Shown one piece after another: positions 6,590 to 29,213 of a stretch of 64,000 nucleotides of DNA. A model generated the notes under the pieces. That model was given only the letters and a program-made list of their open reading frames with translations. It was not told where the DNA came from and searched no databases. Positions within the stretch are counted from its first letter, which is position 1. The number at the start of each line of letters is the position of its first letter. Both the position numbers and the translations under genes were made by a program. The stretch comes from an uncultured Candidatus Saccharibacteria bacterium. GTDB lineage: Bacteria; Patescibacteriota; Saccharimonadia; Saccharimonadales; 2-12-FULL-41-12. The stretch covers positions 135,230 through 199,229 of the forward strand of contig CAZNIK010000002.1 of assembly GCA_964573095.1 (NCBI GenBank). The letters are read 5' to 3'.

Positions 6590-7267
6590 TTACGCCGTCG
6601 CAAATACTGCCGCTTCGACTTGCTTTGCGCCGCTTTTCATTAGTACCGCAGAAGCCGATTCTATGGTTGCACCAGTGGTCAACACATCATCGATCAACAA
6701 TATTTTGGCGCCCTTTATTCGCGTGGTGCTCTTTGGCTCGAAGGCATTCACCAGCTGCTCAAACCTCGTTTTTCGGTCCACCCCAACCTGGCGCGACGAG
6801 GTTCTGCGAATGAGCAGTTCCTCAAAGACCAACTTTCGCCGAAAAGCCAGTTGTTTGGCAATACATTTTGATTGATCATAACCCCGAAGACGAACCCGAC
6901 TATTTGTAGTTGGCACATATGTTACGACTGTGCCTTTTGGGAGAAGTGGTAGCGTTTCATCCAATAACCCAGCCACAATGGTGCTTGCTGACACCGCTCT
7001 TTCAAATTTCAGTTTGTATAGCAGATCTTTTGCAAGCCCGTTATACTCGGCTGCAACCCAGACGCGGAGCAAAGAAACCTTTCGTCGACAATTCGGACAC
7101 ACTTTTGACTGCTGCGTAACAGCGTGACACCGGTAACACCGCGGGGGAACTAGTCCCGTGATTCCCGTGGCACACTGTTCGCAGAGTAGTGTATCCTCCA
7201 CACCACAGCCAAGACAGTGGTGTGGCGCTAAAAGCGTAATCGCGCGTTCCAACACATTCATTCTCAC
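6590..7267 (-). CDS. comF: ComF family protein (phosphoribosyltransferase-like, competence-associated)
   Basis: N-terminal Cys clusters (CLGCG..CEQC, CYRC..CPNC) and the PRTase motif ILLIDDVLTTGATI near the C-terminus. Confidence 0.75.
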   Translation of the reverse strand: MRMNVLERAITLLAPHHCLGCGVEDTLLCEQCATGITGLVPPRCYRCHAVTQQSKVCPNCRRKVSLLRVWVAAEYNGLAKDLLYKLKFERAVSASTIVAGLLDETLPLLPKGTVVTYVPTTNSRVRLRGYDQSKCIAKQLAFRRKLVFEELLIRRTSSRQVGVDRKTRFEQLVNAFEPKSTTRIKGAKILLIDDVLTTGATIESASAVLMKSGAKQVEAAVFATA

Positions 7268-7510: not shown

Positions 7511-7990
7511 ATGGCGCGACGGAACCGCGACGAAGACTTATTGATGGAAGACGAGCTCACGGCTGCTTTTTTAGGTGACGATGATCTAGTAACTGCGGAG
7601 GAGCCAAAGGAAACCGCGACTGCAACAGCCGTGGTCGAAGAGGAGTGGGACGAAGACGACGCCGTTCCAGGACAACTCGCTGTTGATGTATTTGAGACCA
7701 AAGAAAAGTTGGTTGTAAAAGCGCGAACTGCAGGAGTCAACAAGGACGAGCTGGACGTAAGCATCTCGGACAATACGCTTAGCATTCACGGAACGCTCAG
7801 CGCCGGCAACGAAGAAGGGGTAGAGAACTACTTTGTTCAAGAGTGTTACTGGGGAGAGTTCAGCAGAAGTATCGCACTACCCGTACCTGTAAAAGAAGAT
7901 GAGATCGAGGCCGTTCTAAAAGACGGTGTGCTCACAGTCAGCTTTACGAAGGTCAAACAGGATACCGTAAAGAAAATCCAAATTCAGTAA
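7511..7990 (+). CDS. hsp20: Hsp20/alpha-crystallin family small heat-shock protein
   Basis: Acidic N-terminal arm followed by an alpha-crystallin domain (AVDVFETKEKLVVKARTAGV...GVLTVSFTK). SD GGAGGG precedes the ATG. Confidence 0.85.
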   Translation: MARRNRDEDLLMEDELTAAFLGDDDLVTAEEPKETATATAVVEEEWDEDDAVPGQLAVDVFETKEKLVVKARTAGVNKDELDVSISDNTLSIHGTLSAGNEEGVENYFVQECYWGEFSRSIALPVPVKEDEIEAVLKDGVLTVSFTKVKQDTVKKIQIQ

Positions 7991-8030
7991 CTCGCGCACT
8001 TCACATCAATGGAAGCGCGCGTAGAACTAT

Positions 8031-8057
8031 AAAACTCCCGAACCAGTCGGGAGTTTT
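8031..8057. terminator. bidirectional intrinsic terminator between convergent hsp20 and the pilin operon
   Basis: aaaactcccg (8031-8040) pairs with cgggagtttt (8048-8057) across a 7-nt loop. A/T runs lie on both sides. Confidence 0.6.
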
Positions 8058-8086
8058 AGGTTTGTTTTAGAAAAATTACTGTGTAC

Positions 8087-8515
8087 TTAGTTTCCAGCTT
8101 CGATTGCACTCTTCAGCACAAACTTCACGATAAACTGTGCGAGAGCCACGATCACGAGACCGATAACCGCGTAGAGAATGGTGTTCTTTGCACCCGTAAC
8201 GTTCCCGGAGTCGCCCCCAGAAGTAATGTAGCGGAAGCCGCCAATGATTATCATCACCACGGCAACCACCCCAACAATTACTGAGAAGATGTTGACGATC
8301 TCGGTAATTAGCGAGTTTACCTTATCCTCGGGGTTTTGGTTCCCTTGGTTACAGCTTTCATCGCCGCCAAACTTTAAGTCAGCACCCTGGCAAAGCGATC
8401 CATCAATATTAGCCCCAGCTTGCGCCCCCACCGAGCTCGAAACCGCCAGCGCCGGTACCGCAAGCAGTCCTAATGCAAAAGTCGCCAACATTAATTTTTT
8501 TAGTTTCGTAATCAT
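8087..8515 (-). CDS. VirB2/TrbC-like T4SS pilin paralog 1 of 6
   Basis: Signal peptide MITKLKKLMLATFALGLLAVPALA and the Cys pair CQGADLKFGGDESC. The C-terminal TM hairpin is IVGVVAVVMIIIGGFRYITSGGDSGNVTGAKNTILYAVIGLVIVALAQFIV. Confidence 0.6.
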   Translation of the reverse strand: MITKLKKLMLATFALGLLAVPALAVSSSVGAQAGANIDGSLCQGADLKFGGDESCNQGNQNPEDKVNSLITEIVNIFSVIVGVVAVVMIIIGGFRYITSGGDSGNVTGAKNTILYAVIGLVIVALAQFIVKFVLKSAIEAGN

Positions 8516-8583
8516 TTTTTAATTTCCTTTCTAATCACTGCTTGGTTTATATCATAATTTCTTATGCTTGTACAACCATTTAT

Positions 8584-8985
8584 CTAGAGAGTTTTTATGA
8601 CAAACTTGACTATTATCTGCGCAAAGGCAGCTACCGCCAAACCAACAAATGCATAAATTAAGCCGTTTCTCGCCGAAGCAACCGCGTTAGAGTCACCCCC
8701 AGACGTGATGAACCGCAGGCCATAGATAATTATCATTATCACTGCCACAATTCCGACAATAATGCTTAAGATGTTAATTACTCTGCCAATAAGCCTATTG
8801 ACTCTATTTCGTTGAACCTCCGAATCGCATGTTCCGCCAGATCCAAGATTTGCGCCTTTGCAGACTTCCTGTTTTGATGCGCTAAATGGACTCTGGGCGC
8901 TTGCAAACGACGGACTCAAAACCCCTAGCACCAACACCGCCAGAAGTGTCATACTCACCACTATTCTTCTAGTCATTTCTGTCAT
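8584..8985 (-). CDS. VirB2/TrbC-like T4SS pilin paralog 2 of 6
   Basis: Signal peptide and the Cys pair CKGANLGSGGTC. The hairpin is IVGIVAVIMIIIYGLRFITSGGDSNAVASARNGLIYAFVGLAVAAFAQIIV. Confidence 0.6.
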   Translation of the reverse strand: MTEMTRRIVVSMTLLAVLVLGVLSPSFASAQSPFSASKQEVCKGANLGSGGTCDSEVQRNRVNRLIGRVINILSIIVGIVAVIMIIIYGLRFITSGGDSNAVASARNGLIYAFVGLAVAAFAQIIVKFVIKTL

Positions 8986-8989
8986 CTCC

Positions 8990-9376
8990 TTATACCTGCG
9001 ATATAAATAATCTTACTATCAACTGAGCGGCACCAACAATTACAAGCCCAACCGCGGCATAAATTACCATGTTCCGCGTAGTCGCAACCTCTTGAGGATT
9101 ATTGCCGCTCGTAATAAACCGCAACCCCGCAACAATAAAGATAATAACCGCTGCGATGCCCGCAATAATTGACACCAGATTTACCAAATTGGTGATAATA
9201 CCTTCTCTACCGTACAGCGGGTTTGCGCCGTCTAGATTTTTGTCTTTGCAGACACTAGAGTCTCGGGCATTACCCTTACAAACATCTTTGAACGTGTCTA
9301 CTGCATGCACTTGAGCGGCGCCTCCGATGGGGGATAGGGTGAACAGAATCAGCGGAATGAGTAAAAATCTTTTCAT
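8990..9376 (-). CDS. VirB2/TrbC-like T4SS pilin paralog 3 of 6
   Basis: Signal peptide MKRFLLIPLILFTLSPIGGAAQVHA and the Cys pair CKGNARDSSVC. The hairpin is IAGIAAVIIFIVAGLRFITSGNNPQEVATTRNMVIYAAVGLVIVGAAQLIV. Confidence 0.6.
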   Translation of the reverse strand: MKRFLLIPLILFTLSPIGGAAQVHAVDTFKDVCKGNARDSSVCKDKNLDGANPLYGREGIITNLVNLVSIIAGIAAVIIFIVAGLRFITSGNNPQEVATTRNMVIYAAVGLVIVGAAQLIVRLFISQV

Positions 9377-9666
9377 TAGAATTGTCCCAAAAGCGTAATT
9401 ACAATCGAATAGGCCAAAAGCACAATAGCCAACCCAATTAGTGAATATATTATGGCATTTTTAGCCCGAGATATTTTTTCGGGATTATCGCCGCCGGTGA
9501 TGAGATTAAGCCCAGCAATCACAACTATTAATACTGCAATTGCACCTGCTACCCCAAATACAACCGCCATAATATCGCCAATAGAGCCCTGGTCAGCTTT
9601 TACCTCCGGCAGTTTGGTAAGTTTGCTATTGTCAATTTTCGCTTGGGCCAGCAATTCTTTAATCAT
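9376..9666 (-). CDS. VirB2/TrbC-like T4SS pilin paralog 4 of 6 (short, no signal peptide)
   Basis: 96 aa with the hairpin VFGVAGAIAVLIVVIAGLNLITGGDNPEKISRAKNAIIYSLIGLAIVLLAYSIV. Its stop overlaps the next start as TAATG. Confidence 0.55.
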   Translation of the reverse strand: MIKELLAQAKIDNSKLTKLPEVKADQGSIGDIMAVVFGVAGAIAVLIVVIAGLNLITGGDNPEKISRAKNAIIYSLIGLAIVLLAYSIVITLLGQF

Positions 9667-10082
9667 TGTTGAAATGTCCCCGCAATAAAGCTCACCACCG
9701 CAGTCGCCGATACGGCGATGATAAGACCAATCAGTGCATCAATCACGGTTTTTTTTGCAGTACCGATCTTATCTGGAGAGCCTCCACCGCCCGATTGTCC
9801 GCTAGCGGTAATGTATTTGATGCCACCAACAATCACAAACATCACCGCCACCACAACCGCCACCCGCAGAAGAATCTCAATTATTGCGAGCACTATTAAC
9901 CAGACGTCATTTAGGCCGGTCAGCTCTGGAGTGCACACTCTCTGACCTTCTACGATAGATCTTTTGCCGTTTAGGTATTTATACCACTTTGGAAAGCCAA
10001 AAAAACTTCCACCTGGACATGGGGCCCCAAACAAAAAGCTATGTTCCAGATTTAGTTTGAGGTGCAAAAGTGTCAAATACAT
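9663..10082 (-). CDS. VirB2/TrbC-like T4SS pilin paralog 5 of 6
   Basis: The hairpin is VAVVVAVMFVIVGGIKYITASGQSGGGGSPDKIGTAKKTVIDALIGLIIAVSATAVV. It overlaps paralog 4 by 4 nt. Confidence 0.55.
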   Translation of the reverse strand: MYLTLLHLKLNLEHSFLFGAPCPGGSFFGFPKWYKYLNGKRSIVEGQRVCTPELTGLNDVWLIVLAIIEILLRVAVVVAVMFVIVGGIKYITASGQSGGGGSPDKIGTAKKTVIDALIGLIIAVSATAVVSFIAGTFQQ

Positions 10083-10099
10083 ACTGGTTAGGTCTTATC

Positions 10100-10726
10100 T
10101 TACTTAAAGAGCCCTCCTGGCACCAAATATTGAACAAGCGCAAAACTGAAGATATACACAACCAAACCGATGACAGAGTTCTGAATTCTGTTCTTTGCGG
10201 CCTGGGTTTGTTCGGGATTGCCTTGAGAAGAGCTATACAATATACCGGCGTAAATTATCGACCCCACGACGATCAGCCCTACGCCCGCCGAAACAAAGCG
10301 AATTATTGAAAAAACCAAATCCAGTATTGGATTAACTGATGCGCCTGGGTATTTTGGGCCAAGACAGCCGAAGTTAAACTTGGTGTTTACCACCGCACCT
10401 TTCTTGCCGTCTTTTTTTCCACACTGATATTTACCAGCTTCACCAAGAGAGATGCTACTGGAGCCACCGGTAGATGTGGAGTCACCCGGTTTTTTGTCCT
10501 TGTAGTCCTTCGCGATGTTGCGAGCGCAGTCGTCCTTTCTTTCCAGAACTGTGCTGGTACACTTCTTATTAACTTCGGCAACACATTTTTTATTTTCTAC
10601 TTTATTCGGACATTGATCCGATGGAGCCGCACCGACTATTTGACTTTGAGCAAAAACAAGGCAAAAAACACCGAAAAACATTCCAATCGATAGGGTGAAA
10701 AGTCTTAATGATCGAGATCGGCGCAT
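10100..10726 (-). CDS. VirB2/TrbC-like T4SS pilin paralog 6 of 6, with a long Lys/Cys-rich N-terminal ectodomain
   Basis: The ORF-track start 10765 overlaps the promoter -10, so ATG 10726 is preferred; it gives the signal peptide MRRSRSLRLFTLSIGMFFGVFCLVFA. The C-terminal hairpin is FVSAGVGLIVVGSIIYAGILYSSSQGNPEQTQAAKNRIQNSVIGLVVYIFSFALV. Confidence 0.5.
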   Translation of the reverse strand: MRRSRSLRLFTLSIGMFFGVFCLVFAQSQIVGAAPSDQCPNKVENKKCVAEVNKKCTSTVLERKDDCARNIAKDYKDKKPGDSTSTGGSSSISLGEAGKYQCGKKDGKKGAVVNTKFNFGCLGPKYPGASVNPILDLVFSIIRFVSAGVGLIVVGSIIYAGILYSSSQGNPEQTQAAKNRIQNSVIGLVVYIFSFALVQYLVPGGLFK

Positions 10727-10764
10727 ACAATAATTTTTTATTTTTCTAGTATTACTATTCCACA

Positions 10765-10793
10765 ATTATGCACTTTGATAGGTTTATTTGCAA
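10765..10793 (-). promoter_or_regulatory. candidate promoter of the pilin operon
   Basis: On the minus strand, TTGCAA (10793-10788)-N17-CATAAT (10770-10765). Confidence 0.3.
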
Positions 10794-10860: not shown

Positions 10861-11631
10861 ATGCGTAATAAAACACCAAAATTACTTGTTTGCGCTATTT
10901 TGATTTTCGCCTCCAGTGCGAGCTTTCTGATTGTTCCACCAAAGCATACCTTTGCGGCGGCGCCTGAAGGTTTAAAGAAATCTGCATGTAAGGATGTTCG
11001 AGTAAAAAAGTCTTGCGAAGATGGTGTAGATCTTGGTTACGACAAAAGCGTCGCTGGCGCAACCGATGAAAACAAAGTTTGCGGGAATAAGCCTAAGCCG
11101 GTTGGCAAGGGAGGTACTGGACTAACTGTCGAGGCTGCCGACAAGCGCATAGGCTGCGTTGCGGGTGTTGCTGCGGGCAAGACCCAGGGCGAAAAAGCTA
11201 ACCAAGACAAAGCCGAAGAAAAATGTAAGAACAAAAGTGGCGCAAAAAAGGAAAGTTGTATTAAAGGCGCAAAGGCGGCACTTGCTGGCGAGAAAAAAGA
11301 GGACGCTTGTAAAGACGACGCCAACAAGTCCGACTGCGAAGACGGCTTTGATCTTATCAATAGCGAGGATGCCAACGACCAACCCGACTGTGATACAAAA
11401 CTTACTTCAACGCTTAGTTGGATTATCTGTCCTCTGGTTGACATGGGGGTTGGGCTTACAGACTACGTGTTCGAAAACTTTGTTCAGCCATTTCTGGACA
11501 GTGTGCCCGTGAGCACAGACACAAAATCTGGAACCTACAAAGCGTGGCAACAATTTAGAGTTATTGCGAATGTGCTGTTAATAGGTACGCTGCTTGTGGT
11601 TGTCTATTCGCAAATAAAGGGGGATCGATAG
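10861..11631 (+). CDS. secreted Lys/Cys-rich protein with C-terminal TM helix (T4SS-locus component, unknown function)
   Basis: Signal peptide MRNKTPKLLVCAILIFASSASFLIV..FAAAP. It has a duplicated CKD-x5-CEDG-x-DL motif and a C-terminal TM helix VIANVLLIGTLLVVVY. It ends at TAG 11629-11631, in frame with the next ORF. Confidence 0.5.
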   Translation: MRNKTPKLLVCAILIFASSASFLIVPPKHTFAAAPEGLKKSACKDVRVKKSCEDGVDLGYDKSVAGATDENKVCGNKPKPVGKGGTGLTVEAADKRIGCVAGVAAGKTQGEKANQDKAEEKCKNKSGAKKESCIKGAKAALAGEKKEDACKDDANKSDCEDGFDLINSEDANDQPDCDTKLTSTLSWIICPLVDMGVGLTDYVFENFVQPFLDSVPVSTDTKSGTYKAWQQFRVIANVLLIGTLLVVVYSQIKGDR

Positions 11632-13608
11632 TTGCTTGACGCGTACACCGTTAGAAAAGCCATTCCGCGGATTGTTGTGGCGGTAATTGCTATCAATCTG
11701 TCGATTTATCTGTGTGTGGCCGCGCTTGATATTACTACTGTCGTCGGCAAGGGAATTGGGCAAATACTTGTGTCTGCATTTGTAGAGCCAGGTGATTTCA
11801 AAGGAATAAAGGTAGAGCCCAATACAGAAAATAGCATATTGGGTGTGCTCGGTGTCGGGGGAATTGGAGCAATAATTGCAGCAATTATTGCAAGTGGTGG
11901 AGCAATTGCCGTATCGCTTCTAGGATTATTGTTGCCTCTCGTAATCACAATTGCCTTGACTGCGCTGGCAATACTCTTTACTCTAGTCATCTGGCAAGCA
12001 CTTGTTATTTTTCTGACAGTAATTTCGCCGGTTGCAATTGCATGTTATATCTTGCCAGGAACAGAGAAGTATTTTAAGCAGTGGTGGGACCTATACTTTA
12101 GAACTTTGCTGGTTTATCCAATCATTGCCGTTCTTTTTGCAATGGGAAACGTTATGGGAGCAATCTTGCTTGGTGCGTCAACCAGCTCTCCAGACGGCGT
12201 AGGAACAATTCAATTGGTCGCCGCAGTTTTGGTAATTTTTGCACCATTGGTGCTTATTCCTTTTGCGTTCAAATTGGCCGGTGGAGCAATTGCGTCGGTA
12301 ATGAACCTCGCGCAAGGCCGAGCATCAACTTTGGCGGGTAGAGCTGGACAGTCAATTCAAAAATCTCGACAAGACCCAAACAGCTGGCTGGGCAGTCGCG
12401 CGTTTCGGGCAAGGGAAAACCGCAGAACCGCCGGTTTTACTCCCGGCCAAATAATGAGCGGCTTATCAAGTGGCACAAAAGCAACTTTGCGGGGCAGGTC
12501 ATTTAGATCCGCATATAGTGCTGCATCAGGGACACTTGGCAGAGAGTCAGCTTTTGATCAAGCAAGTGCTTTTATGGAGAACAATGCTGCGTTCAAGGCA
12601 ATTAGTGGAAACGACGATACCTTGTGGGCATTTCGACACGGCAAAAACGAGGCAGAAGTAAGAAAATATCTAGGTGAAAAAGGCTTGGAGGGAAGAGACC
12701 TTGATGAATCCGTAGCTATGGTCATGAGAGCTCGCGCGCAAACTAGTAAAGAGGTTGGTGACATTGCTGCAGTTCGCGCTCAAGCCAAAACTGGGACCGG
12801 CTATGCCGATAATGCCGATATGTACGAGGATATCATTACTGCTGCGGGTGGCGACATGAACCTTGGGGCGAGAATGTATGCAGAAATGCGTGGTTCGGCA
12901 GTTAATTCAGGTCGCATGGAATTAGGCACCGCAAGCTTCATGGCTGGAGTAGAAGGCATGAGCGGTATTCGTGATGCAATCGCGTCTGGAGATAACGCAG
13001 CTGTTATGAGTGCAAAAGAAGCCGCAAACAAAAAAACATTGCGATCTGTTATTGACTCCAATTCATCGGCTGCCGCTGTCCACGGCAAACCAAAGAGCGC
13101 GGAGGCAATCGCTGAAGCCCACAGAGAAAAAATCGATGACTTTATGCACAGCCTAAGCACCGGCGCAGTTATTGACGTAAACGGTCAGCAGAGAGTAGCA
13201 ACTGCAAGAGACGTAAAACAGGCACTTGCGGCTGCACACGGTGTACACGATGCCATGCAGAGTGCATCTCCTCAAAACGCAAGAGCTTTCGCAGATAAGT
13301 TGATGGGCGGAGGCATTAATGTGGCCGGTCTATCCAGTGAAGCAAGGGCATCGCTAGGTCCAGCTTTCGAAGCTCCTGCAATTGGTGGCCAATCTTCGCT
13401 TGGCCCTTCCGGGAACTTAACCTATAAAATGGTAATGGATGACTTAGCTGGTAGAGATCAAACCTACGCTGAGCTAAGGCGCGATTTTGCCAATGCCAGC
13501 CTTGCTCAACAAGCAGAAAGAGACTATGAAATTCGTAGCCAAATGAACCCACCCGCTGCGGGTCAAAATCCTGGCGGACCTCCGCCTCCTCCCGGCGGTA
13601 CACCGTAA
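11632..13608 (+). CDS. VirB6/TrbL-like polytopic membrane protein with long C-terminal extension
   Basis: The TTG start directly follows the upstream TAG, with SD AAGGGGGA at 11617-11624. The first ~230 aa contain at least 6 hydrophobic helices. A ~400-aa Ala-rich hydrophilic region follows, ending in the Pro-rich tail GGPPPPPGGTP. Confidence 0.55.
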   Translation: MLDAYTVRKAIPRIVVAVIAINLSIYLCVAALDITTVVGKGIGQILVSAFVEPGDFKGIKVEPNTENSILGVLGVGGIGAIIAAIIASGGAIAVSLLGLLLPLVITIALTALAILFTLVIWQALVIFLTVISPVAIACYILPGTEKYFKQWWDLYFRTLLVYPIIAVLFAMGNVMGAILLGASTSSPDGVGTIQLVAAVLVIFAPLVLIPFAFKLAGGAIASVMNLAQGRASTLAGRAGQSIQKSRQDPNSWLGSRAFRARENRRTAGFTPGQIMSGLSSGTKATLRGRSFRSAYSAASGTLGRESAFDQASAFMENNAAFKAISGNDDTLWAFRHGKNEAEVRKYLGEKGLEGRDLDESVAMVMRARAQTSKEVGDIAAVRAQAKTGTGYADNADMYEDIITAAGGDMNLGARMYAEMRGSAVNSGRMELGTASFMAGVEGMSGIRDAIASGDNAAVMSAKEAANKKTLRSVIDSNSSAAAVHGKPKSAEAIAEAHREKIDDFMHSLSTGAVIDVNGQQRVATARDVKQALAAAHGVHDAMQSASPQNARAFADKLMGGGINVAGLSSEARASLGPAFEAPAIGGQSSLGPSGNLTYKMVMDDLAGRDQTYAELRRDFANASLAQQAERDYEIRSQMNPPAAGQNPGGPPPPPGGTP

Positions 13609-13637: not shown

Positions 13638-14663
13638 CTAGGGATTTTCGCCTTCGGTCTTCTCAATATTTATCAGTGTGCTGTTTAAAATCGATAGCAC
13701 TTCAGCATCACTTACTAATGCATAGCCGTGCTTTGTACTTTCTTCCATTGTGTGAGTATTCTCAATTAATCCAGCAAGAAGTGCGTAGTATTTTTCTCTC
13801 TCTTCATCACTTAGGGATTTAACGTCCGTCGGAAGATTCGGCATAATAAAATCCGGGTCGGAAAACCAAACTTGACGATTTATTTTCTTTGTTCCGCCAC
13901 TTTCAATCAGACTATACTCTCTGTTCAGTTCGCCTTGCTGCGTGCGCTCAACAAATGTAATGCTTGCTATCTCCGTGTGTTCCATCAATAGATTCTCTTT
14001 TCTGTCGTTTTTGTTAATCCAGGCAAACGTTACATTTTGACCACCAATAATTTCATAACTTGAGATATGGAAATTCCCCGTAGTAGCTCCGCTTGTTTTT
14101 GAGAAAAATTCTACAACTTCTGAAAAAGCGGATATCGTGCTGTCCATGGGCAACTCGCTGCGATTGGATACCTCTAAATTGTAGGATTTTACATAGCTAG
14201 GGGTCACAAAATTTCTGCCCAGCGTAAACTCATTTACTGGAGCCATTTGTTTTGGTATTGCAATAAGCTTTTCGCTTGGATCTATCTTTTGATACCTTAT
14301 CAATTCGCCGTCTTTACGAACAAACTTACCCATTGCGTATTCTGCTAACACACCACTTTGATGCCTCGTGTATACTCCGCGCTCAACGCCTCTTCTGTCA
14401 TTTAATGCCGCAAAGAGCGGACTCACTTCATGAAGCTTTTCCCTGGCTGCCATTACAGGAGGGGCAAATACGTTAGGGTCCAGGGCTTGGAGTTTATCTA
14501 AAGTATATGCATTCTCTTTTGATAGGTGTCCGAGCCAACGATCGTTTGGCCAAGGAAGCCCAGTTTCACCGGAAACAGGATCATAGTTGCTTAGCTTTGG
14601 GCCAGCCTCTCCAGCGGAGATTGGGTTATTTTGGGGATTCATAAGGACTTGATTATGGCTCAT
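13638..14663 (-). CDS. hypothetical cytoplasmic protein (orphan embedded in the T4SS locus)
   Basis: 341-aa ORF with no TM helix or signal peptide and no motif I can assign. Confidence 0.5.
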   Translation of the reverse strand: MSHNQVLMNPQNNPISAGEAGPKLSNYDPVSGETGLPWPNDRWLGHLSKENAYTLDKLQALDPNVFAPPVMAAREKLHEVSPLFAALNDRRGVERGVYTRHQSGVLAEYAMGKFVRKDGELIRYQKIDPSEKLIAIPKQMAPVNEFTLGRNFVTPSYVKSYNLEVSNRSELPMDSTISAFSEVVEFFSKTSGATTGNFHISSYEIIGGQNVTFAWINKNDRKENLLMEHTEIASITFVERTQQGELNREYSLIESGGTKKINRQVWFSDPDFIMPNLPTDVKSLSDEEREKYYALLAGLIENTHTMEESTKHGYALVSDAEVLSILNSTLINIEKTEGENP

Positions 14664-14679
14664 TTTCGGTCCCTAAAGT

Positions 14680-15387
14680 CTATAGTCCCTTTATCATTAG
14701 TTCGATTCGTTTTTTAAGTCTGCTAAACTTATCAACGACCTTCTCTTTTTCAGCTCGGCTTTTTTTGTTTGCTTCATGTAGCATCTCTTGTTTTTCGCGC
14801 GATGCTTCGTATCTTATTGCGTTACGCCGCTCTCGTCCTTTTTCCGAATCTGAGTACTCGCCACTTTCTAGCCTTTGTTCCTGCTTTGGCGTAGCAACAT
14901 CTTTGCCATAGATAAATTCAAGCCTTGCTTGTTTGGCTCCCTCCTTAAAGGCCTTTCTTTTTCTACGCTCAACTTTATCAAGCCTCCGTTTTTCTTTCCT
15001 GGTAATTGGTTTGTGCTCGGTTGAAGCTTGAGTGGATATTGCTGCCTCAACTAGCTCGTACAACCTAGTTTTTGGTTCGTTAGACTCTGGTACTTTTTTT
15101 GATTCTGGAGCTTCCGTACTTGCCTGTTCTTGTCTCGTCAACCGTCTTCCTATTTCAGAAAGGCGAACATTATTATCGACACTCTGGGGAGTTGGGCTTG
15201 GCTGAATTTGCATCACATCTCTACGGGTTAGTGGGATTGCTTGTTGCTCTGGAATGGCGTTAATCTGCGCTGTTGTTGATTCATGTGTAGCAGCAGCACC
15301 TAATTCCATTGTTATTTTCGGAGTATTGGGTACAAGGTAGGAAATCTTTACTCTTTCTGAAGTGTAGTTTTTTTGTTTTTCTGACAT
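14680..15387 (-). CDS. hypothetical highly charged Lys/Arg/Glu-rich protein (orphan embedded in the T4SS locus)
   Basis: The ORF-track entry 14680..15492 is trimmed to ATG 15387 (MSEKQKNYTSERVK...). The C-terminal half is a charged helical region (KEKRRLDKVERRKRKAFKEGAKQ...KKSRAEKEKVVDKFSRLKKRIE). Confidence 0.45.
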   Translation of the reverse strand: MSEKQKNYTSERVKISYLVPNTPKITMELGAAATHESTTAQINAIPEQQAIPLTRRDVMQIQPSPTPQSVDNNVRLSEIGRRLTRQEQASTEAPESKKVPESNEPKTRLYELVEAAISTQASTEHKPITRKEKRRLDKVERRKRKAFKEGAKQARLEFIYGKDVATPKQEQRLESGEYSDSEKGRERRNAIRYEASREKQEMLHEANKKSRAEKEKVVDKFSRLKKRIELMIKGL

Positions 15388-15547
15388 AGGTAAGTAATAT
15401 ATTAACATATATAGTTGAGTATTGCAAGTGTCCCGGTAAGCTTCCCGGTGTTTACCCGAAACTGCATGTTTGGACAGCTTCAAGACCCTCACTGAGCTAC
15501 GCTAACACTGCTCCTCACCTCATCTGCTACAATAAGCGTAAGAAGTT

Positions 15548-16543
15548 ATGGCGACACACAAAGTAATTCAAGACATTGAGGCCGAAGACAAGTTTCTTGG
15601 TCCTCTGACGATCAAACAGTTCATATTCGGGGCAATTGGGGTGTTTTTTGGGTGGTTAAACTTTTTTGCCTTTGCCAAAGGCTTTCCTTTGGCGGCAATT
15701 GTTTTTGCGCCGCCGATGTTGCTCGGCTTTTTCTTGGCTATTCCCTGGAGCAAAGATCAACCAACTGAAGTGTGGGTACTTGCCAAGTTGCGGTTTCGCC
15801 TTAAGCCAAAGCGGCGAGTGTGGGACCAAGATGGTATTCAAGAACTCGTGACAATTACCGCACCCAAAAAAGTAGAGAAATATCTGACAAACACCCTGTC
15901 TCAGACGGAGGTAAAAAGCCGACTAAAAGCCCTCGCAGAAACCATAGACAGCCGTGGCTGGGCCATCAAGCACGCGTCGCTAAACACGCCTGTCGTTGGG
16001 GCGGAAGGGACTGATCGGCTTCTTGGGGCGCAAGCCTTTGCCGATGAAGTGCCAGCAGTCGACACAAACTCTATCGAAGACATGTTTGAAGATAGCCCAG
16101 TTTCTAGCGCCTTTGACCACATGATAAAAGAAAAAACCCAGGAAGTTCGTCAAGCCAACCTCGACAAACTTGACCGAATTCGACAAGGCGAACCCTTGGA
16201 GACAATCCACCAAAATCCACCGGTCATCACGCCGCCGTTAGAAAATGTAAGCCCGGCCGCAGCCACTCTTGCTCCAGACACTAACGAGAAACAGCTGAGT
16301 CAACAATTAGCAGCCAGTCGGGCAGCAACCAACGACGCCTACGAAAATATGCATAAAATCGGCTCCAAAAAACCCCAAAAAGTTGACGACGATCAGCAAA
16401 AAGCACAAGCATCTATCGCAACCCTGTCTACCCCTGCTATAATGAGGCTAGCCCATAACGACTATCTCGACGTCGCGACCATTGCCAGACAAGCAAAAAA
16501 GGAAATTGGCCAGGTTGACGAGGTGGTCGTATCGCTGCACTAA
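15548..16543 (+). CDS. PrgI/VirB3-like T4SS membrane protein
   Basis: The N-terminus IEAEDKFLGPLTIKQFIFGAIGVFFGWLNFFAF plus a second TM helix matches the PrgI-family pattern. A long hydrophilic C-terminal tail follows. Confidence 0.6.
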   Translation: MATHKVIQDIEAEDKFLGPLTIKQFIFGAIGVFFGWLNFFAFAKGFPLAAIVFAPPMLLGFFLAIPWSKDQPTEVWVLAKLRFRLKPKRRVWDQDGIQELVTITAPKKVEKYLTNTLSQTEVKSRLKALAETIDSRGWAIKHASLNTPVVGAEGTDRLLGAQAFADEVPAVDTNSIEDMFEDSPVSSAFDHMIKEKTQEVRQANLDKLDRIRQGEPLETIHQNPPVITPPLENVSPAAATLAPDTNEKQLSQQLAASRAATNDAYENMHKIGSKKPQKVDDDQQKAQASIATLSTPAIMRLAHNDYLDVATIARQAKKEIGQVDEVVVSLH

Positions 16544-16594: not shown

Positions 16595-17569
16595 ATGGAA
16601 CCCAATCAACAAAATCAACAATCTACCGCGCCTCAACAAGCAGCCAATGCTTTGCCGCCCCAGCCTGCACCCAACCCTCCCCAAGTTGGCGCACAAGGAG
16701 CAGTCTACATCGATCCAATACAGGCCGCCGAGCCTCAGCCGACGCCGCCGCGACCTGGTTTTATCCCCGACATTCAGCCTGGAGTAGTTATTCCAGGAGA
16801 CCCAAACAAACCCGCCCAGAGCGGTGTAGCGCGACCACCCGTAAACCCCAACAGCACTCAAAACAACCTGCAGATTGCTGAGGTCCGTGATGGAATTGTC
16901 ATTATGAACGACGGTTCTTATCGTTCGGTTCTTATGGTAAAATCTATCAATTTTGACCTCATGAGCCCCGCCGAACGCGAAGGTGTAGAGTTTAGTTATC
17001 AAGCGTTTTTAAACTCCTTGTATTTTCCAGTGCAGATTTTTGTACGATCCCAAAAGGTGGACTTAGGCCCCTACATAGAAAAGTTGGACAAAATTCGCTC
17101 CGAACATGACAACATGCTGCTTGCTGTGTTAATGGACGACTACATTGACTACATTGATCAGTTGTCGGCCCAAACCAATATTATGGACAAGCACTTCTAC
17201 GTCGTTATCCCGTTCTTTCCAGTGATTGAAAAACAGCAAGCGTTAACATCGAGCAAGAATTTACTCGACGGGGTTATGAGGCTATTCGGAGACAACAAAA
17301 CACACGTAGTTATCAATGAGGCGCACCTCGAGGAAGCAAAGGCCGAGTTGCGAAATCGTGTCCAGGCCGTGCTAGGAGGCTTGCTGCAGTGCGGCGTCCA
17401 AGGGCTTCCGCTCGACACCCAAGAGTTGATCGAGCTATACTACGACACCTACAATCCCGACACCGCGACTCGCCAACAGTTGAAAAATTTCGACGAAATG
17501 ACAACCCCGGTCGTGACAAAAGGCACCGGCGAGGCTCCTCAGCCAAACCTAGAAAGGGAACTAGGATGA
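16595..17569 (+). CDS. hypothetical protein resembling a VirB4 N-terminal domain, without an ATPase domain
   Basis: The N-terminus is Pro/Gln-rich. The block DGSYRSVLMVKSINFDLMSPAEREGVEFSYQAFLNSLYFPVQIFV resembles the N-domain pattern of conjugative VirB4-type ATPases. No Walker motifs are present. Confidence 0.4.
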   Translation: MEPNQQNQQSTAPQQAANALPPQPAPNPPQVGAQGAVYIDPIQAAEPQPTPPRPGFIPDIQPGVVIPGDPNKPAQSGVARPPVNPNSTQNNLQIAEVRDGIVIMNDGSYRSVLMVKSINFDLMSPAEREGVEFSYQAFLNSLYFPVQIFVRSQKVDLGPYIEKLDKIRSEHDNMLLAVLMDDYIDYIDQLSAQTNIMDKHFYVVIPFFPVIEKQQALTSSKNLLDGVMRLFGDNKTHVVINEAHLEEAKAELRNRVQAVLGGLLQCGVQGLPLDTQELIELYYDTYNPDTATRQQLKNFDEMTTPVVTKGTGEAPQPNLERELG

Positions 17570-17630: not shown

Positions 17631-19553
17631 ATGGGCCTTTTTGGAGGTAAAAAAGCCCCACCAACTGACCCAGCAGCAATTGCCCAAGCGCAGCGAGCGC
17701 GCGAAGAGCAAGAGGTTTCTGTTGCCTTTCAAAAGGGTTTGGTGGCACTTCGAGACTTCATTGCACCAAGTTCGATCGAGTTTAGTAATACTCATTTTCA
17801 GCTCGGCACTCGCTTTGCCAGAACCTATTATGTCTACGGCTATCCCCGCCAGCTCACTACTGGTTGGTTGAGCAGCATGGTGAACTTGGATGAAGTGATT
17901 GATCTTTCGATGTACATTTACCCCGTTGAGAGCCAAGTGGTGCTGAACAATCTTAGAAAAAAAGTGGCCCAACTCGAAGCCGGGCTGCAAATTGACTCCG
18001 AAAAAGGTAAGGTCAGAGACCCCGCCAAGCAATCGGCAATTATGGACGCCGAGGAAATGCGCGACAAATTACAAGTCGGCGAAGAGCGCTTTTTTAGATT
18101 TGGTTTGTATTTTACGGTGTACGCCAGCTCGATGGATGAAATGGAGTTTATTAGTCACAAAATTGAGTCAATTTTGGGCCAGCAGTTGGTGTACTCTAAG
18201 CCAGCGAGCTCCCAGCAGGAACAGGGACTAAATAGCACGGTACCGCAATTTACTGACCAGCTCCAAATACGGCGGAACATGAATACGGGAGCCATCAGCA
18301 CGAGCTTTCCGTTTACCAGCGCAGACCTAACCCAAGAAAACGGAATTCTTTACGGTATTAACATGCATAACTCGGGTCTGGTTATTTTTGACCGGTTCAC
18401 GCTCGAAAACGGCAACGCTGTGGTGTTTGCAAAATCGGGCGCAGGCAAAAGTTTTACCGTAAAACTCGAGGCCTTACGGAGCATGATGCTCGGAACCGAG
18501 ATATTTATTGTTGATCCCGAAAACGAGTATCAACGCATGTGCGAAGCCGTCGGCGGTGCCTACGTGCGACTAAGCTTGAACTCGACTACAAGAATCAATC
18601 CGTTTGATTTGCCACAGGTGGTTGATACCGAAGAAGCCGACAACGCCCTGCGCAGCAATCTAATTACGCTTCATGGGTTACTGAGATTAATGATGGGGGG
18701 CGCCCAGGCACAAGTGCAATCCAGTGGCGGAGCAATGATGGCCCCAGCCCTCAGTCCTGCTGAAGAAGCCGATTTAGATGCTGCACTAATCGAAACCTAC
18801 GCCAAAGCCGGTATTACAAATGACCCCCTTACCCACAATGCGACGCCCCCGACAATTAACGACCTTTACGAAACCCTGCTTCATATGGGCGGCAGCGGGC
18901 CACAGCTCGCCCAGCGATTAAGAAAGTATACATCTGGAACGTTTGCGGGCATTTTTTCTCAACAAAGCAACATTAATATCAATAACCCGATGGTCGTATT
19001 CAATATTCGTGACCTCGAGGACGAACTTCGACCAGTGGCGATGTATATCGTGTTGAATTACATCTGGAACAAGACCAAAAGCGACCAAAAGCGAAGATTA
19101 CTGGTGGTTGATGAGGCCTGGCAGCTTATGAAGTACGAGGATAGTGCAAATTTCTTGTTTTCGCTTGCCAAACGTGCCCGAAAGTATAACTTAGGAATCA
19201 CCACCATCACCCAGGATGTTGAGGATTTCATGGGGAGCCGCATGGGGCGGGCAATTGTTGCCAACTCTAGTATGCAAATCCTTTTGAAGCAGTCGACTTC
19301 GGCGGTGGATGTACTGTCTGATGTGTTCAAGCTCACCAGCGAAGAGCGAAAACGCCTCAGTCAATTCCCTGTGGGGCAAGGGTTGTTCTTTGCGGGGCAG
19401 AACCACGTGCACATCCAAGTTGTCGCCAGTCCGACAGAAACCAATCTCATCACAACCAACCCCCAGCAAGTACAGCAGGTGCAGCAGACTGGAGAAATTG
19501 ACGGCGGCCAGGGCTCGATTGACCTTGGTAATCGATTGTACCCAGGAGTGTAG
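17631..19553 (+). CDS. virB4: VirB4-type T4SS ATPase
   Basis: 640 aa with SD AAGGAGAG 7 nt upstream. The N-domain is FIAPSSIEFSNTHFQLGTRFARTYYVYGYP, Walker A is FAKSGAGKSF and Walker B is RLLVVDEAW. Confidence 0.85.
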   Translation: MGLFGGKKAPPTDPAAIAQAQRAREEQEVSVAFQKGLVALRDFIAPSSIEFSNTHFQLGTRFARTYYVYGYPRQLTTGWLSSMVNLDEVIDLSMYIYPVESQVVLNNLRKKVAQLEAGLQIDSEKGKVRDPAKQSAIMDAEEMRDKLQVGEERFFRFGLYFTVYASSMDEMEFISHKIESILGQQLVYSKPASSQQEQGLNSTVPQFTDQLQIRRNMNTGAISTSFPFTSADLTQENGILYGINMHNSGLVIFDRFTLENGNAVVFAKSGAGKSFTVKLEALRSMMLGTEIFIVDPENEYQRMCEAVGGAYVRLSLNSTTRINPFDLPQVVDTEEADNALRSNLITLHGLLRLMMGGAQAQVQSSGGAMMAPALSPAEEADLDAALIETYAKAGITNDPLTHNATPPTINDLYETLLHMGGSGPQLAQRLRKYTSGTFAGIFSQQSNININNPMVVFNIRDLEDELRPVAMYIVLNYIWNKTKSDQKRRLLVVDEAWQLMKYEDSANFLFSLAKRARKYNLGITTITQDVEDFMGSRMGRAIVANSSMQILLKQSTSAVDVLSDVFKLTSEERKRLSQFPVGQGLFFAGQNHVHIQVVASPTETNLITTNPQQVQQVQQTGEIDGGQGSIDLGNRLYPGV

Positions 19554-22500: not shown

Positions 22501-22626
22501 TCTGGTGTTGGACAATTTCAAGCTGGAGGTTGCGGTGCAAGTTTTGATTTTCCAGAAGGTATTTCCAATTTCGCCGACTCATGTAACCACGTCCACATTC
22601 AGGTGCCTATAGAGGGGGCCAGGTAG
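19588..22626 (+). CDS. 1012-aa membrane-anchored envelope protein with a C-terminal LAS (M15/VanY-like) zinc-peptidase-like domain
   Basis: Disordered N-terminus, one TM helix (GGGAVGVVVGGLIIFGVA) and an ~850-aa ectodomain. The C-terminal SYHYRDGGGHAVDV ... CNHVHIQV fits the H..D / HxH metal-ligand pattern. Confidence 0.5.
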   Translation: MTTQTPPKKPEDSEHLESQPTPRFPINKNPRGGVMDDQNRPSGDASDPRGPGPDKVVTPQDLKSAESSASRPSTGTIGAEEKGLMGKAGDTVGKGYTGNESPGRLQRLRGMFTRRRAAAGGGAVGVVVGGLIIFGVAQGPFQFVNAAQILQKLHFERNENFGNRRTMKMLQRALRDSGTERGRLGFIRNDVADKWEKELVDKTGLKPAYSQKTGRFVGFEIVDENKAANTLSDLNDNKKSQRLVEKSFGKGAEIKTQAEMGGRQEIRGTRGEPIDEKRRIVDLSNVSYGDRGSYIKTIGRATGTYKVTSAIGSRLLIKRGGVDFQPYKNVKRKTNDKLADWRAKIRQDAAERDKKGVKTPEEIRAASEDKDGDGTPETDPGAEKASAEGKELIAEADNQLQEGGGNGESRSKLKTNLARGAGGAAMIGVLCTVRSFGDDVENYKYVNNALPMMRMGMRVISMGNGVMSGKGFSLDELGAFQEAFYDKEAKTSFLSARNIQAGIGKKQTGPDIPREAKLANVGDKPAFFNVVDSIPFLGETCGISDGFFGLPVIKQVTSVVGDIAGAATDLALGLADTNTEELMGDALAAASGNSVNVFAKGAEFGNLANTGAFLAANEQAISMGGSALSERQVAQLREESRLLDKDDYSNQSFFARYVDVSNSSSLVSKFLNNSPKSGSEFVGSVSSSFSNAWRSFAGALPVLGSWVHAADSAYDYGMRTYGFSLDEEKQFDDPYENADYVVPRLDELNEKYGKCFGMKVTADDNGPHIQTDELGSEDAFNAFKLDAKKSGYEQCNNPNDEDLLRYRFYLADAQTGLSLACYYDDEDACSEIGAASPRRQGEADSSSSVSVDGTVQELAKRLVDSGKLSDQDGRYMSQIKALANGNGSCKINPTILKMLVGIIEEGHTITMSSLNRRCTGVLTASGSASYHYRDGGGHAVDVVSFDGQGTNGGNAASVNYLKLALKYIPSGSGVGQFQAGGCGASFDFPEGISNFADSCNHVHIQVPIEGAR

Positions 22627-28021: not shown

Positions 28022-28045
28022 CTATTGGTATTATGCCACGATCGG

Positions 28046-29137: not shown

Positions 29138-29213
29138 GTGGGTTTCCTTCCTAGATAATAATTAATAGTGTTTTATTTAGAAGAGTAGGTTTAGTAGAAG
29201 GGGTTGGGTAAAA

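Follow-up and report, generated by a model that had tools for sequence, protein, structure and literature searches.

Canonical diderm T4SSs have a single VirB2 pilin and a separate VirB5 tip protein; unlike them, the locus described here carries six tandem VirB2-like genes and no detected VirB5. This raises the question of what a Saccharibacterium does with six pilins, and in particular whether they are parts of one structure, interchangeable variants, channel components, or duplicates in decay. We addressed this question in a 64,000-nucleotide stretch of DNA (the window; contig CAZNIK010000002.1 of assembly GCA_964573095.1) and by comparison with other genomes.

Quiñonero-Coronel et al. (2025, Microb Genom; PMC12102498) reported 441 VirB2 arrays of 2 to 11 genes in 383 Patescibacteria assemblies, located near virB4, close to dnaA, relaxase-free, and commonest in Saccharimonadia and Microgenomatia; they stress the variability of the arrays and suggest a role in antigenic variation or host range. 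Six pilins have been described in Southlakia epibionticum ML1 (PMC10633639), and a 2025 FEMS review likewise counts "6 ... VirB2-like pilins" (PMC12857230), so the original prediction started from an outdated premise in treating a sextet as unusual. The array in the window agrees with the published description of Patescibacteria arrays and, since arrays of this kind are already published, adds one more instance only. The fixed order of six types and the candidate promoter before the last type, both described below, are new relative to PMC12102498, whose main text does not contain the word "ortholog."

Six pilin genes beside a T4SS

Six consecutive pilin genes, W6 to W1 in order of transcription, were read from the open reading frames and sequence of the minus strand at positions 8087-10726, with the W6 frame reaching back to TTG 10765 (Table 1). 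All of the frames originally predicted are present and intact. The proposal that they encode VirB2-like pilins was borne out by profile searches, as every one of the six exceeded the PF18895 (T4SS_pilin) gathering cutoff of 26.6 bits, a whole-protein score (W1, 59.7; W2, 45.2; W3, 51.8; W4, 43.1; W5, 29.9; W6, 34.9; E-values from 6e-7 to 3e-16). W5 scored closest to this cutoff. The gathering cutoff of PF04956 (TrbC/VirB2; 27.9 bits, also for whole proteins) was exceeded by W1 only (37.5 bits); W3 (26.9), W4 (23.5), W2 (21.4), and W5 (13.5) fell below it and W6 had no match. The search for homologs yielded 4,940, and precomputed annotation assigns both families to most of the 120 listed (PF04956 to most of the W1 homologs). 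None of the six reached the curated cutoff of 40 bits for NF045849, the NCBIfam model of pilin-like conjugal transfer proteins (Mbov_0395 family) of Mycoplasma ICEs (W1, 38.8; W6, 37.3; W4, 34.0; W2, 25.1; W3, 23.2; W5, no match); by these scores, the array pilins are related to that family and not members of it.

Table 1. Features of the pilin array and the surrounding T4SS locus, in window coordinates
Feature	Position	Strand	Description
Hairpin with T-runs	8030-8058	.	12 pairs; where the W1 and Hsp20 genes converge
W1 pilin	8087-8515	-	142 aa; distal gene; signal peptide, C42/C55 segment, VirB2-type hairpin
W1 promoter-like element and ribosome-binding site	8525-8575	-	In the W2-W1 gap; read from sequence
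W2 pilin	8584-8976	-	130 aa; signal peptide, one Cys pair, hairpin
W3 pilin	8990-9376	-	128 aa; signal peptide, C33/C43, hairpin; start overlaps W4 stop (TAATG)
W4 short pilin	9376-9666	-	96 aa; no Cys; start overlaps W5 stop (ATGA)
W5 pilin	9663-10082	-	139 aa; no signal peptide; Cys-bearing N-terminal segment, then hairpin
W6 pilin	10100-10726	-	208 aa; first array gene; signal peptide, Lys/Cys-rich ectodomain, hairpin ending LVPGGLF
Promoter-like site for W6-W2 operon	10765-10793	-	TTGCAA-17-CATAAT; divergent intergenic region; consensus match alone
Cys/Lys-rich exported protein	10861-11631	+	256 aa; divergent from array; abuts VirB6-like gene
VirB6-like membrane protein	11632-13608	+	Weak TrbL/VirB6 match (E 0.0027)
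PrgI/VirB3-like	15548-16543	+	T4SS core
TrsD-like (weak)	16595-17569	+	T4SS core
VirB4 ATPase	17631-19553	+	About 7 kb from pilin array
1012-aa protein	19588-22626	+	Within T4SS core
Cell-wall hydrolase	22630-25698	+	Lysozyme, amidase, NlpC/P60 domains
YidC	31776-32699		Encoded in window

The common C-terminal hairpin could be aligned over all six proteins (TM1, loop, TM2), and the other paralogs are 25 to 46% identical to W1. Hydropathy gave three hydrophobic segments, a signal peptide and two TM helices, in W1, W2, W3, and W6, and the two hairpin helices only in W4 and W5; of the two elements that define a VirB2-type structure, the hairpin is therefore found in all six and the leader in only four. 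The original descriptions of W1 to W3 (signal peptide, one Cys pair) and of W4 (96 aa, leaderless) fit these results, and W5, noted for a Cys-containing segment, has C22/C50. AlphaFold2 (AF2) models of W1 and W6 show the hairpin, which by the alignment is also present in the remaining four. The W1 model has hairpin helices at residues 62-98 and 103-141, with block-mean pLDDT of 84-93 (about 90) over residues 71-140; the W6 model has a helix pair (45-76), a disordered stretch (82-94), a small beta unit (100-115), and the hairpin (133-201), the ectodomain being small and modeled with moderate confidence.

A profile of the six paralogs searched against all PDB chains returned no pilin; its matches, among them viral fusion proteins and PsbX, were due to chance (E>0.3). 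Foldseek searches of the PDB with the W1 and W6 models gave nothing at E<0.001. The conjugation pilus of Aeropyrum pernix (8dfu) ranked 23rd (E 4.1; TM 0.65 on target) with a hairpin fold too simple to be telling; because helical hairpins match many coiled coils, Foldseek neither favors nor disfavors the VirB2 fold. In Agrobacterium VirB2, RP4 TrbC, and F TraA, all small proteins, the leader is cleaved and a short loop with basic residues connects two hydrophobic helices. The window pilins resemble them as small two-helix proteins, leader-bearing in part, of which W1 passes the Pfam TrbC model, and differ in being six paralogs in a monoderm envelope with added disulfide-bearing N-terminal segments.

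The T4SS assignment made originally also holds, as VirB6-like, PrgI, VirB4, and hydrolase genes lie beside the array. Homologs of the VirB6-like protein bear PF19590 and PF04610 (for one of them the source name is TrbL/VirB6), and this gene adjoins the pilin array in every related locus where it was found. The locus lies near dnaA, dnaN, and recF of a Saccharimonadales genome, with Hsp20 and ComFC-like genes past the W1 end, and homologs of the neighboring genes are exclusively Saccharibacterial. Pfam and NCBIfam searches of about the 45 largest of the 91 open reading frames in the window found no relaxase or coupling protein. With more than the requisite two tandem PF18895/PF04956 genes beside virB4, and no relaxase among the frames searched, the locus is a Saccharibacterial T4SS pilin array as these are defined. 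An identical W1 protein is present in GCA_041907465.1; the lineage is that of an environmental Saccharimonadales MAG.

Gene starts and junctions

The W2 gene probably starts at ATG 8976, preceded by GGAG 9 nt upstream, instead of at 8985, which would give 133 aa; public gene calls likewise have 130 aa. For W6, the most likely start is ATG 10726 (MRRSRSLRLF...) and not TTG 10765, because the promoter-like site ends at that TTG and public calls have 208 aa. With the start moved, the mature W6 ectodomain is about 105 aa and not the approximately 130 aa originally given; its Lys/Cys-rich character (17 Lys, 6 Cys) stands. The FGAPC stretch of W5 was considered as a lipoprotein lipobox and rejected against the known lipobox consensus, as its Cys is preceded by Pro and the ortholog consensus F-a-a-x-C is unfit.

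The two stop/start overlaps originally noted were read directly, TAATG at 9374-9378 and ATGA at 9663-9666. Translational coupling of the whole sextet, also proposed, is narrowed to these W4/W3 and W5/W4 junctions, the others being gapped (W6-W5, 17 nt; W3-W2, 4-13 nt; W2-W1, 68 nt). W1 is not coupled, because the 68-nt gap before it contains a promoter-like element. At the other end of W1, the hairpin at 8030-8058 is likely a bidirectional terminator closing the array.

A similar six-pilin array in Southlakia epibionticum

Wang et al. (2023, Cell; PMC10633639) described a syntenic six-pilin array, SEML1_0014-0019, in the T4SS of S. epibionticum ML1. The array is required for growth of S. epibionticum on its host, and each of its six PF18895 genes was scored essential by Tn-seq (PMC10633639 supplement) from 11-15 insertion sites per gene, a setting in which essentiality of an upstream gene can reflect polar effects. 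In both loci a monoderm-type T4SS lies close to the origin and includes PrgI, VirB4, and a lysozyme-type hydrolase; both also have a divergent VirB6-like gene and, beyond the last pilin, a convergent Hsp20 gene and then a ComFC-like gene. In both, genes 2 and 3 overlap by 4 nt and a gap precedes the last pilin (83 nt in ML1, 68 nt here). Gene lengths are also alike (132/185/103/126/127/138 aa in ML1 versus 208/139/96/128/130/142 aa here), except that the long gene is the second in ML1 and the first, with its Cys/Lys-rich ectodomain, here. This likeness is one of synteny, PF18895 membership, and length pattern.

Conservation of the six positions

We compared the array with 52 pilin arrays from other Saccharibacteria. 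The best match in another genome lay at the same array position in 94% of cases for W6, 92% for W5, 68% for W4, 52% for W3, 50% for W2, and 76% for W1. Positional orthology is weaker at positions 3-5 (50-68%). Matches between genomes at the same position outscore those within a genome at different positions (median, 81 versus 51 bits). Conserved motifs and Cys patterns also differ from one position to the next; the N-terminal motif of W5, for example, consensus F..C..gsFfGfPtWYKYL...C, is kept in 19 positional orthologs. A short gene of about 100 aa stands at position 3 in most arrays, as W4 does here. Among the 19 canonical-order arrays listed, the first five genes stand about -20 to +27 nt apart, with one outlier at -73 nt. 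By these comparisons, the order of the six pilins is fixed, and they are orthologs by position.

All six genes are under purifying selection, with dN/dS of 0.015-0.21 versus the nearest relative. Values for W1 to W5 lie at 0.015-0.08 (W1, 0.078; W2, 0.071; W3, 0.069; W5, 0.057; W4, 0.015, the lowest of the six), and W6, at 0.21 overall, divides into an ectodomain at 0.22 with indels and a hairpin at 0.04. Divergence between species is rapid in the membrane-distal portion of the W6 ectodomain. Among strains sharing an identical W1, W6 is 96-98% identical and thus not hypervariable at the strain level.

That one paralog works and the rest are decaying duplicates, a condition under which the original prediction was to fall, is hardly conceivable given these data: apart from the W5 score near the Pfam cutoff (29.9 versus 26.6), nothing points that way, and against it stand the intact frames, the dN/dS values, the positional orthologs across the 52 arrays, and the Tn-seq scoring of all six counterparts in ML1 as essential. 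We are all but certain that the six genes encode nonredundant VirB2/TrbC-type pilins of a chromosomal, origin-proximal, monoderm-type T4SS conserved in Saccharibacteria.

The pilins might instead be interchangeable, any of them forming a filament alone, with the array serving antigenic variation or choice of host strain. This is the role suggested for Patescibacteria (PMC12102498), and, as cited in PMC12102498, tandem virB2/trwL paralogs occur in Bartonella Trw and in Anaplasma/Ehrlichia T4SSs, with a variant role proposed for Bartonella Trw and Anaplasma virB2. Low identity within arrays (25-46% to W1 here; 25% on average in PMC12102498), the fast-diverging membrane-distal part of W6 with its indels, and the 2-4 W1-type duplicates of some genomes would fit such a role; the duplicates make variation within the W1 class possible in those genomes. 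We nevertheless consider interchangeable variants quite unlikely, as each type keeps its position and motif across diverse Saccharibacteria, selection is purifying on all six, and W6 hardly varies where W1 is identical. W6 to W2 are moreover packed as one operon and would therefore be co-expressed and not switched, and six essential genes of six in ML1 would be unexpected under redundancy. The systems cited in PMC12102498 resemble the array in that the T4SS is not used for conjugation and has multiple VirB2-family genes in tandem; those paralogs are regarded as variant surface subunits, whereas the ones here are ancient, architecturally distinct, and fixed in order, with counterparts in ML1 that were individually scored essential. 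The comparative evidence favors a co-assembled structure, in keeping with the heteromeric or stratified filament first proposed, which the fixed positions, separate motifs, and purifying selection all favor.

A candidate promoter before W1

The W2-W1 gap contains a putative -35 element, TTGTAC (8570-8575), an extended -10 element, TGATATAAA (8546-8554), and a Shine-Dalgarno sequence, AGAAAGGA (8525-8532). Across Saccharibacterial arrays, TGNTATAA occurs in the largest intra-array gap of 31 of 52, versus 0.9 expected (shuffled gaps; maximum, 5), and an exact match is absent from 21. It is accompanied by [AG]AAGG in 27 arrays, in which the distance from the end of TGNTATAA to the start codon is 23-48 nt, mostly 30-35 nt. 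A conserved candidate extended -10 promoter and Shine-Dalgarno sequence thus precede the W1 gene type. The internal W1 promoter is here a conserved sequence motif with a GAAAGG ribosome-binding site, found via conservation across loci; a sigma-70 consensus scanner gave 5 sites in the region versus a shuffle expectation of 5.5, no excess, and missed the W1 element because its -35 matches the consensus at just 3 of 6 positions.

W1 stands apart in two further respects. Its hairpin is the best conserved of the six between genomes (0.66 mean identity versus 0.44-0.54), and extra pilin copies in other genomes are nearly always of the W1 type.

A proposed heteromeric structure

We propose that W1 to W6 would enter the membrane in the form of helical hairpins, with W1, W2, W3, and W6 taking the Sec route with signal peptide cleavage, and W4 and W5, both without a signal peptide, possibly using YidC. 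The topology of W4 and W5 may differ from that of W1 to W3, as they lack the signal peptide. The VirB4/VirB6 machine would then pull the pilins from the membrane into one heteromeric tube. W1 would be its major, repeating subunit, a role proposed because of a conserved candidate promoter and a strong ribosome-binding site of its own, its best-kept hairpin, and its amplification in other genomes. W6, W5, W4, W3, and W2 would be made in roughly fixed ratios from their tight, partly overlapping operon and serve as low-copy, specialized minor subunits, e.g., in a base or initiation complex or at the tip; W6 is a candidate host-contact element because the membrane-distal part of its disulfide-rich ectodomain varies between species. 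The assembled tube would be a short conduit linking epibiont to host. That six T4SS pilins work by such a heteromeric tube, the whole taken together, seems to us somewhat better than an even bet.

Type IV pili and type II secretion pseudopili likewise combine an abundant subunit with an operon of low-copy paralogs that have a common hydrophobic assembly domain; their fold and machine are unrelated to the array, and the analogy is one of function and not of homology.

In diderm T4SSs, VirB2 is thought to act within the channel, and the pilins here may form no extracellular pilus, remaining in the membrane or cell wall as channel parts of a pilus-less monoderm T4SS; such a role might also be comparable to that of the Mycoplasma ICE pilin-like protein. 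Consistent with this, Gram-positive T4SSs lack pili (PMC10633639; PMC12857230), the nearest NCBIfam score is to the Mbov_0395 family of ICEs of wall-less Mycoplasma (38.8 versus 40 bits), W4 and W5 are without signal peptides, and no filament has been tied to the array genes. Tube-like conduits about 9 nm wide have, however, been seen in two Patescibacteria-host systems (PMC11880426; bioRxiv 10.64898/2026.06.21.733656), and the conserved, apparently strong W1 expression signal better suits a polymerizing subunit than a stoichiometric part; we therefore regard a purely channel-forming role as rather unlikely. One of these conduits, the tube or "lance" of the Saccharibacterium M. amalyticus, reaches the host, measures about 9 nm across and 61-70 nm in length by cryoET, and carries a barb at its tip (PMC11880426). 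That W1 polymerizes on or under five ancient, individually required minor pilins, with W6 as a pilin-adhesin fusion at the host-contacting tip and corresponding to the barb, is a more tentative proposal, to which we give somewhat less than an even chance. Our search found no newer structural or genetic work on Saccharibacterial array pilins beyond PMC10633639, PMC12102498, PMC12857230, PMC11880426, and bioRxiv 10.64898/2026.06.21.733656.

Implications

How ultrasmall CPR/Patescibacteria epibionts obtain host resources is the larger question to which this array belongs, and the T4SS with its pilin array is the leading conduit candidate. Our results argue against the published idea that such arrays serve mainly antigenic or host-range variation. 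The useful specifics are six ordered types, a separately promoted and amplifiable W1, and a fast-diverging membrane-distal ectodomain in W6; from these, the comparison predicts which gene would encode the tube and which would encode specialized parts, a prediction useful for cultivated systems. If the more tentative proposal, with W6 at the tip, is true, no earlier T4SS pilus would have had VirB2 paralogs forming a minor-pilin complex that replaces VirB5, and the components of the tube through which CPR epibionts feed would be named.

Identity and architecture of the six pilins

Inspection of the ORF list and of the sequence bore out the original prediction of six consecutive minus-strand genes between positions 8087 and 10765, here W1 to W6, of which W6 is first in the operon and W1 distal. 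All six proteins exceeded the curated cutoff of the Pfam T4SS_pilin profile PF18895 (29.9 to 59.7 bits versus 26.6 bits), and W1 also passed the TrbC/VirB2 profile PF04956 (37.5 bits versus 27.9 bits), showing that they are VirB2/TrbC-family proteins, as proposed. The shared C-terminal hairpin (TM1, loop, TM2) could be aligned across all six paralogs, and hydropathy analysis placed an additional N-terminal signal-like hydrophobic segment in W1, W2, W3, and W6, with none in W4 or W5. A single Cys pair in each of W1 to W3, the FGAPCPGG...C segment of W5, and the 96-aa length of W4, which has no signal peptide and is also Cys-free, were all as described. The W6 ectodomain has the expected Lys/Cys-rich composition, but its mature length is ~105 aa (17 Lys, 6 Cys) and not the ~130 aa first given. 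The stop/start overlaps at 9374-9378 (TAATG) and 9663-9666 (ATGA) were exact; W1, 68 nt from W2, is not translationally coupled. W6 most likely starts at ATG 10726 (208 aa) rather than at TTG 10765; this protein is 208 aa long in public gene calls, and a promoter-like site (TTGCAA-17-CATAAT) ends exactly at this upstream TTG. The start of W2 is probably ATG 8976 (130 aa), with GGAG ahead of it.

In the AF2 model of W1, made from a 58-sequence alignment, a linker that contains Cys and was modeled at low confidence joins the signal helix to a confidently predicted helical hairpin (residues 62-98 and 103-141), with block-mean pLDDT of 84 to 93, about 90, over residues 71-140. In the W6 model, the signal helix was followed by a helix pair (45-55 and 61-76) bearing four Cys, then by a Ser/Gly linker modeled as disordered and a small beta unit (100-115) with the conserved C102 and C121 on either side, and finally by the hairpin. 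Foldseek searches of the PDB with both models gave no significant match, the archaeal conjugation pilin 8dfu appearing only at rank 23, and a sequence-profile search of the PDB gave no match; family membership is therefore carried by the Pfam profiles and not by fold comparison.

Features of the pilin array and its neighborhood (positions in the window)
Feature	Position	Strand	Remark
ComFC-like gene	6590-7267		Other flank of array
Hsp20	7511-7990		Convergent with W1; other flank of array
12-bp hairpin	8030-8058		Between W1 and Hsp20; resembles bidirectional terminator
W1	8087-8515	minus	Distal pilin gene
Putative Shine-Dalgarno AGAAAGGA	8525-8532	minus	Ahead of W1
Predicted extended -10 TGATATAAA	8546-8554	minus	Ahead of W1
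Predicted -35 TTGTAC	8570-8575	minus	Ahead of W1
W6 (ORF)	10100-10765	minus	First pilin gene of operon
Cys/Lys-rich exported protein, 256 aa	10861-11631	plus	Divergent from array
VirB6/TrbL-like polytopic protein	11632-13608	plus	Abuts 256-aa gene; divergent from array
341- and 270-aa ORFs	13638-15492	minus	Inside T4SS locus
PrgI/VirB3-like protein	15548-16543	plus	Downstream T4SS gene
Weak TrsD-like protein	16595-17569	plus	Downstream T4SS gene
VirB4	17631-19553	plus	Downstream T4SS gene
1012-aa protein	19588-22626	plus	Scanned against Pfam only; no match at E ≤ 0.001
Cell-wall hydrolase (lysozyme/amidase/NlpC-P60)	22630-25698	plus	
recF, dnaN, dnaA	26960-30903	minus	Beyond T4SS genes
yidC	31776-32699	plus	
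1155-aa protein	33257-36724	plus	Near origin region
Surface-polysaccharide cluster	42000-57000		Lower GC

Conservation of six pilin types in a fixed order

An HMM built from the six window hairpins was run against all ORFs of 68 related loci, and complete-looking arrays of 5 to 9 pilin genes (mode, 6) were present at 52 loci, the window counted. The pilin genes of all 52 lie on the strand opposite the VirB6-like gene, and most arrays lie directly upstream of it. When each pilin was compared with the window paralogs by BLASTP, the order W6-W5-W4-W3-W2-W1(xN) emerged at locus after locus. In a non-circular test, in which each pilin's best match was taken in every other genome and position was counted from the VirB6 side, same-position best matches between genomes amounted to 94, 92, 68, 52, 50, and 76% for positions 1 to 6 and beyond; the median score was 81 bits between genomes at matching positions versus 51 bits within one genome at differing positions. 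The types carry position-specific signatures: W6 usually has six Cys and ends in LVPGGLF, W5 has F..C..gsFfGfPtWYKYL...C, W4 is short (~100 aa), W3 has D.f.dvC...vC...NPl.Gp.Gi, and W1 has lC.Ga.L...C with a nearly invariant hairpin. Between genomes, the hairpin of W1 is better conserved than that of any other type (mean identity, 0.66 versus 0.44 to 0.54), and almost all copy-number variation comes from additional distal W1-type genes.

Compared with the nearest species-level relative (L002; dS 0.64 to 0.92 for W1 to W5 and ~1.06 for W6), dN/dS was 0.078, 0.071, 0.069, 0.015, 0.057, and 0.21 for W1 to W6, respectively, and within W6 it was 0.22 in the ectodomain, which also has indels, and 0.04 in the hairpin. 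Because W6 is 96 to 98% identical among near-identical strains, there is no strain-level hypervariability of this protein. These comparisons show that selection keeps each of the six as a separate orthologous type and that their order is fixed. Decay of the paralogs was refuted.

Some Saccharibacterial loci have a further W1-like pilin gene ~1.4 to 1.6 kb from the array and on the other strand (plus-strand genes at L053, 593-1003; L060, 3826-4230; L061, 5299-5709); no such copy was found in the window. A comparable separate "pilin" gene of Southlakia epibionticum, SEML1_0024, is non-essential (PMC10633639).

Putative expression signals ahead of W1

In the 19 arrays listed as having the canonical order, spacing among the first five genes is about -20 to +27 nt (single outlier, -73 nt). 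Next comes a gap of 44 to 108 nt and then a W1-type gene, in most cases the first of them. This gap contains the extended -10 motif TGNTATAA in 31 of 52 arrays (shuffled gaps: mean 0.9, maximum 5), and a GAAAGG-type Shine-Dalgarno lies ≤16 nt from the start codon in 38 of 52. Where an [AG]AAGG site is present as well (27 arrays), the distance from the end of the motif to the start codon is 23 to 48 nt, mostly 30 to 35 nt. The 12-bp hairpin beyond W1 looks like a bidirectional terminator. The signals described here are conserved motifs rather than mapped transcript ends.

Relation to published arrays

The array of S. epibionticum strain ML1 (SEML1_0014-0019; Wang et al. 2023, PMC10633639) has the same layout as that of the window: six PF18895 genes (132, 185, 103, 126, 127, and 138 aa) flanked by a VirB6-like gene on one side and Hsp20 and a ComFC-like gene on the other, with a 4-nt overlap between genes 2 and 3 and an 83-nt gap before the last. 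All six were scored GD/ES/ES (essential). A survey of Patescibacteria reported 441 VirB2 arrays of 2 to 11 genes, with 25% mean within-array identity, in 383 assemblies, most of them from Saccharimonadia and Microgenomatia; it noted dnaA proximity and suggested a role in antigenic variation or host adaptation (Quiñonero-Coronel et al. 2025, PMC12102498). A 2025 FEMS review mentioned 6 VirB2-like pilins and speculated on the T4SS and pilus as a conduit (PMC12857230). The window array is therefore one more instance of a published feature, of a kind already experimentally characterized. That the paralogs are interchangeable or antigenic variants, one of the readings first offered, is disfavored by the positional orthology of the six types, purifying selection, operon packing, and the essentiality of the whole ML1 set, although it could still hold among the duplicated W1-type genes of other genomes.

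Genomic neighborhood

The six pilins are encoded beside a VirB4/VirB6 machine. Homologs of its VirB6-like protein and all 68 related loci belong to Saccharibacteria/Saccharimonadia MAGs, and a protein identical to W1 is present in GCA_041907465.1 and several metagenomes, with gene order preserved. No relaxase or coupling protein was matched by Pfam or NCBIfam among some 45 of the largest ORFs of the 64-kb window. The 256-aa protein, whose stop abuts the VirB6-like start (11631/11632), starts with a signal peptide and has a hydrophobic segment at its C terminus as well as a region rich in Lys and Cys (CKD...KKSCEDG..., with C-x-K motifs repeated), and it had neither a Pfam nor an NCBIfam match; because its composition resembles that of the W6 ectodomain, it may be a further exposed T4SS part. 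The 341- and 270-aa ORFs likewise had no Pfam (E ≤ 0.001) or NCBIfam match; the ML1 region corresponding to these and the 1012-aa ORF encodes essential hypothetical proteins, one with an NTF2-like (VirB8-like) fold (supplement, PMC10633639).

The T4SS adjoins the replication-origin gene set (26960-33190), the placement reported for Patescibacterial T4SSs, with two small unannotated ORFs between the hydrolase gene and this set, in which recF/dnaN/dnaA are followed by plus-strand rnpA, yidC, and a Jag/KhpB-like gene. The 1155-aa protein has a GDSL-like lipase/acylhydrolase domain as its sole Pfam match (E = 9.5e-11); this putative large exported lipase could help epibiont feeding on host envelope lipids. 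The polysaccharide cluster (GC 0.39 to 0.41 versus ~0.46 to 0.50 elsewhere in the window) encodes a Wzm/Wzt ABC transporter, GT2/GT4 glycosyltransferases, a methyltransferase, a DegT aminotransferase, a GFO/IDH oxidoreductase, an epimerase, and a DUF7657/DUF7654 protein, and may be a glycan island that either was acquired horizontally or evolves fast.

Proposed roles of the pilin types

We infer that W1 to W6 co-assemble into a single structure, in keeping with the heteromeric filament or conduit originally suggested. W1 would be the polymerizing tube subunit, given its separate, apparently strong expression signals, tightest hairpin constraint, and amplifiability, whereas W6 to W2 would be low-copy specialized subunits in fixed proportion. 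W6, whose disulfide-rich ectodomain differs between species in its membrane-distal part, is a candidate for the host-contacting end. More speculatively, W4 and W5, having no signal peptide, may insert via YidC. Suggestions in the literature for what is transported include effector export and nutrient or nucleic-acid uptake (PMC12857230 among sources).

Five of the six pilins matched NCBIfam NF045849 (Mbov_0395 family pilin-like conjugal transfer protein of Mycoplasma ICEs) with scores under its cutoff, the best reaching 38.8 versus 40 bits; W5 had no hit. These scores hint at pilins of the PF18895 type being native to monoderm systems of the MPF-FATA type, as opposed to the borrowing from diderm T4SSs that has been considered possible (PMC12102498). 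This similarity to a protein of wall-less bacteria, together with the general absence of pili from monoderm T4SSs, would also suit membrane-resident channel components that form no pilus, but we consider this less likely in view of the W1-specific expression signal and of the tubes, ~9 nm wide with tip density, that join another Saccharibacterium to its host in cryoET (PMC11880426). Possible T4SS pili have also been described in another cultured member of a bacterial lineage that has a reduced metabolism and depends on hosts (bioRxiv 10.64898/2026.06.21.733656). What the present analysis adds to the published picture is comparative: evidence that the pilins fall into six fixed orthologous types and that one of these, the proposed major type, has its own promoter. 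Both points sharpen the hypotheses that can be addressed in cultivated systems.
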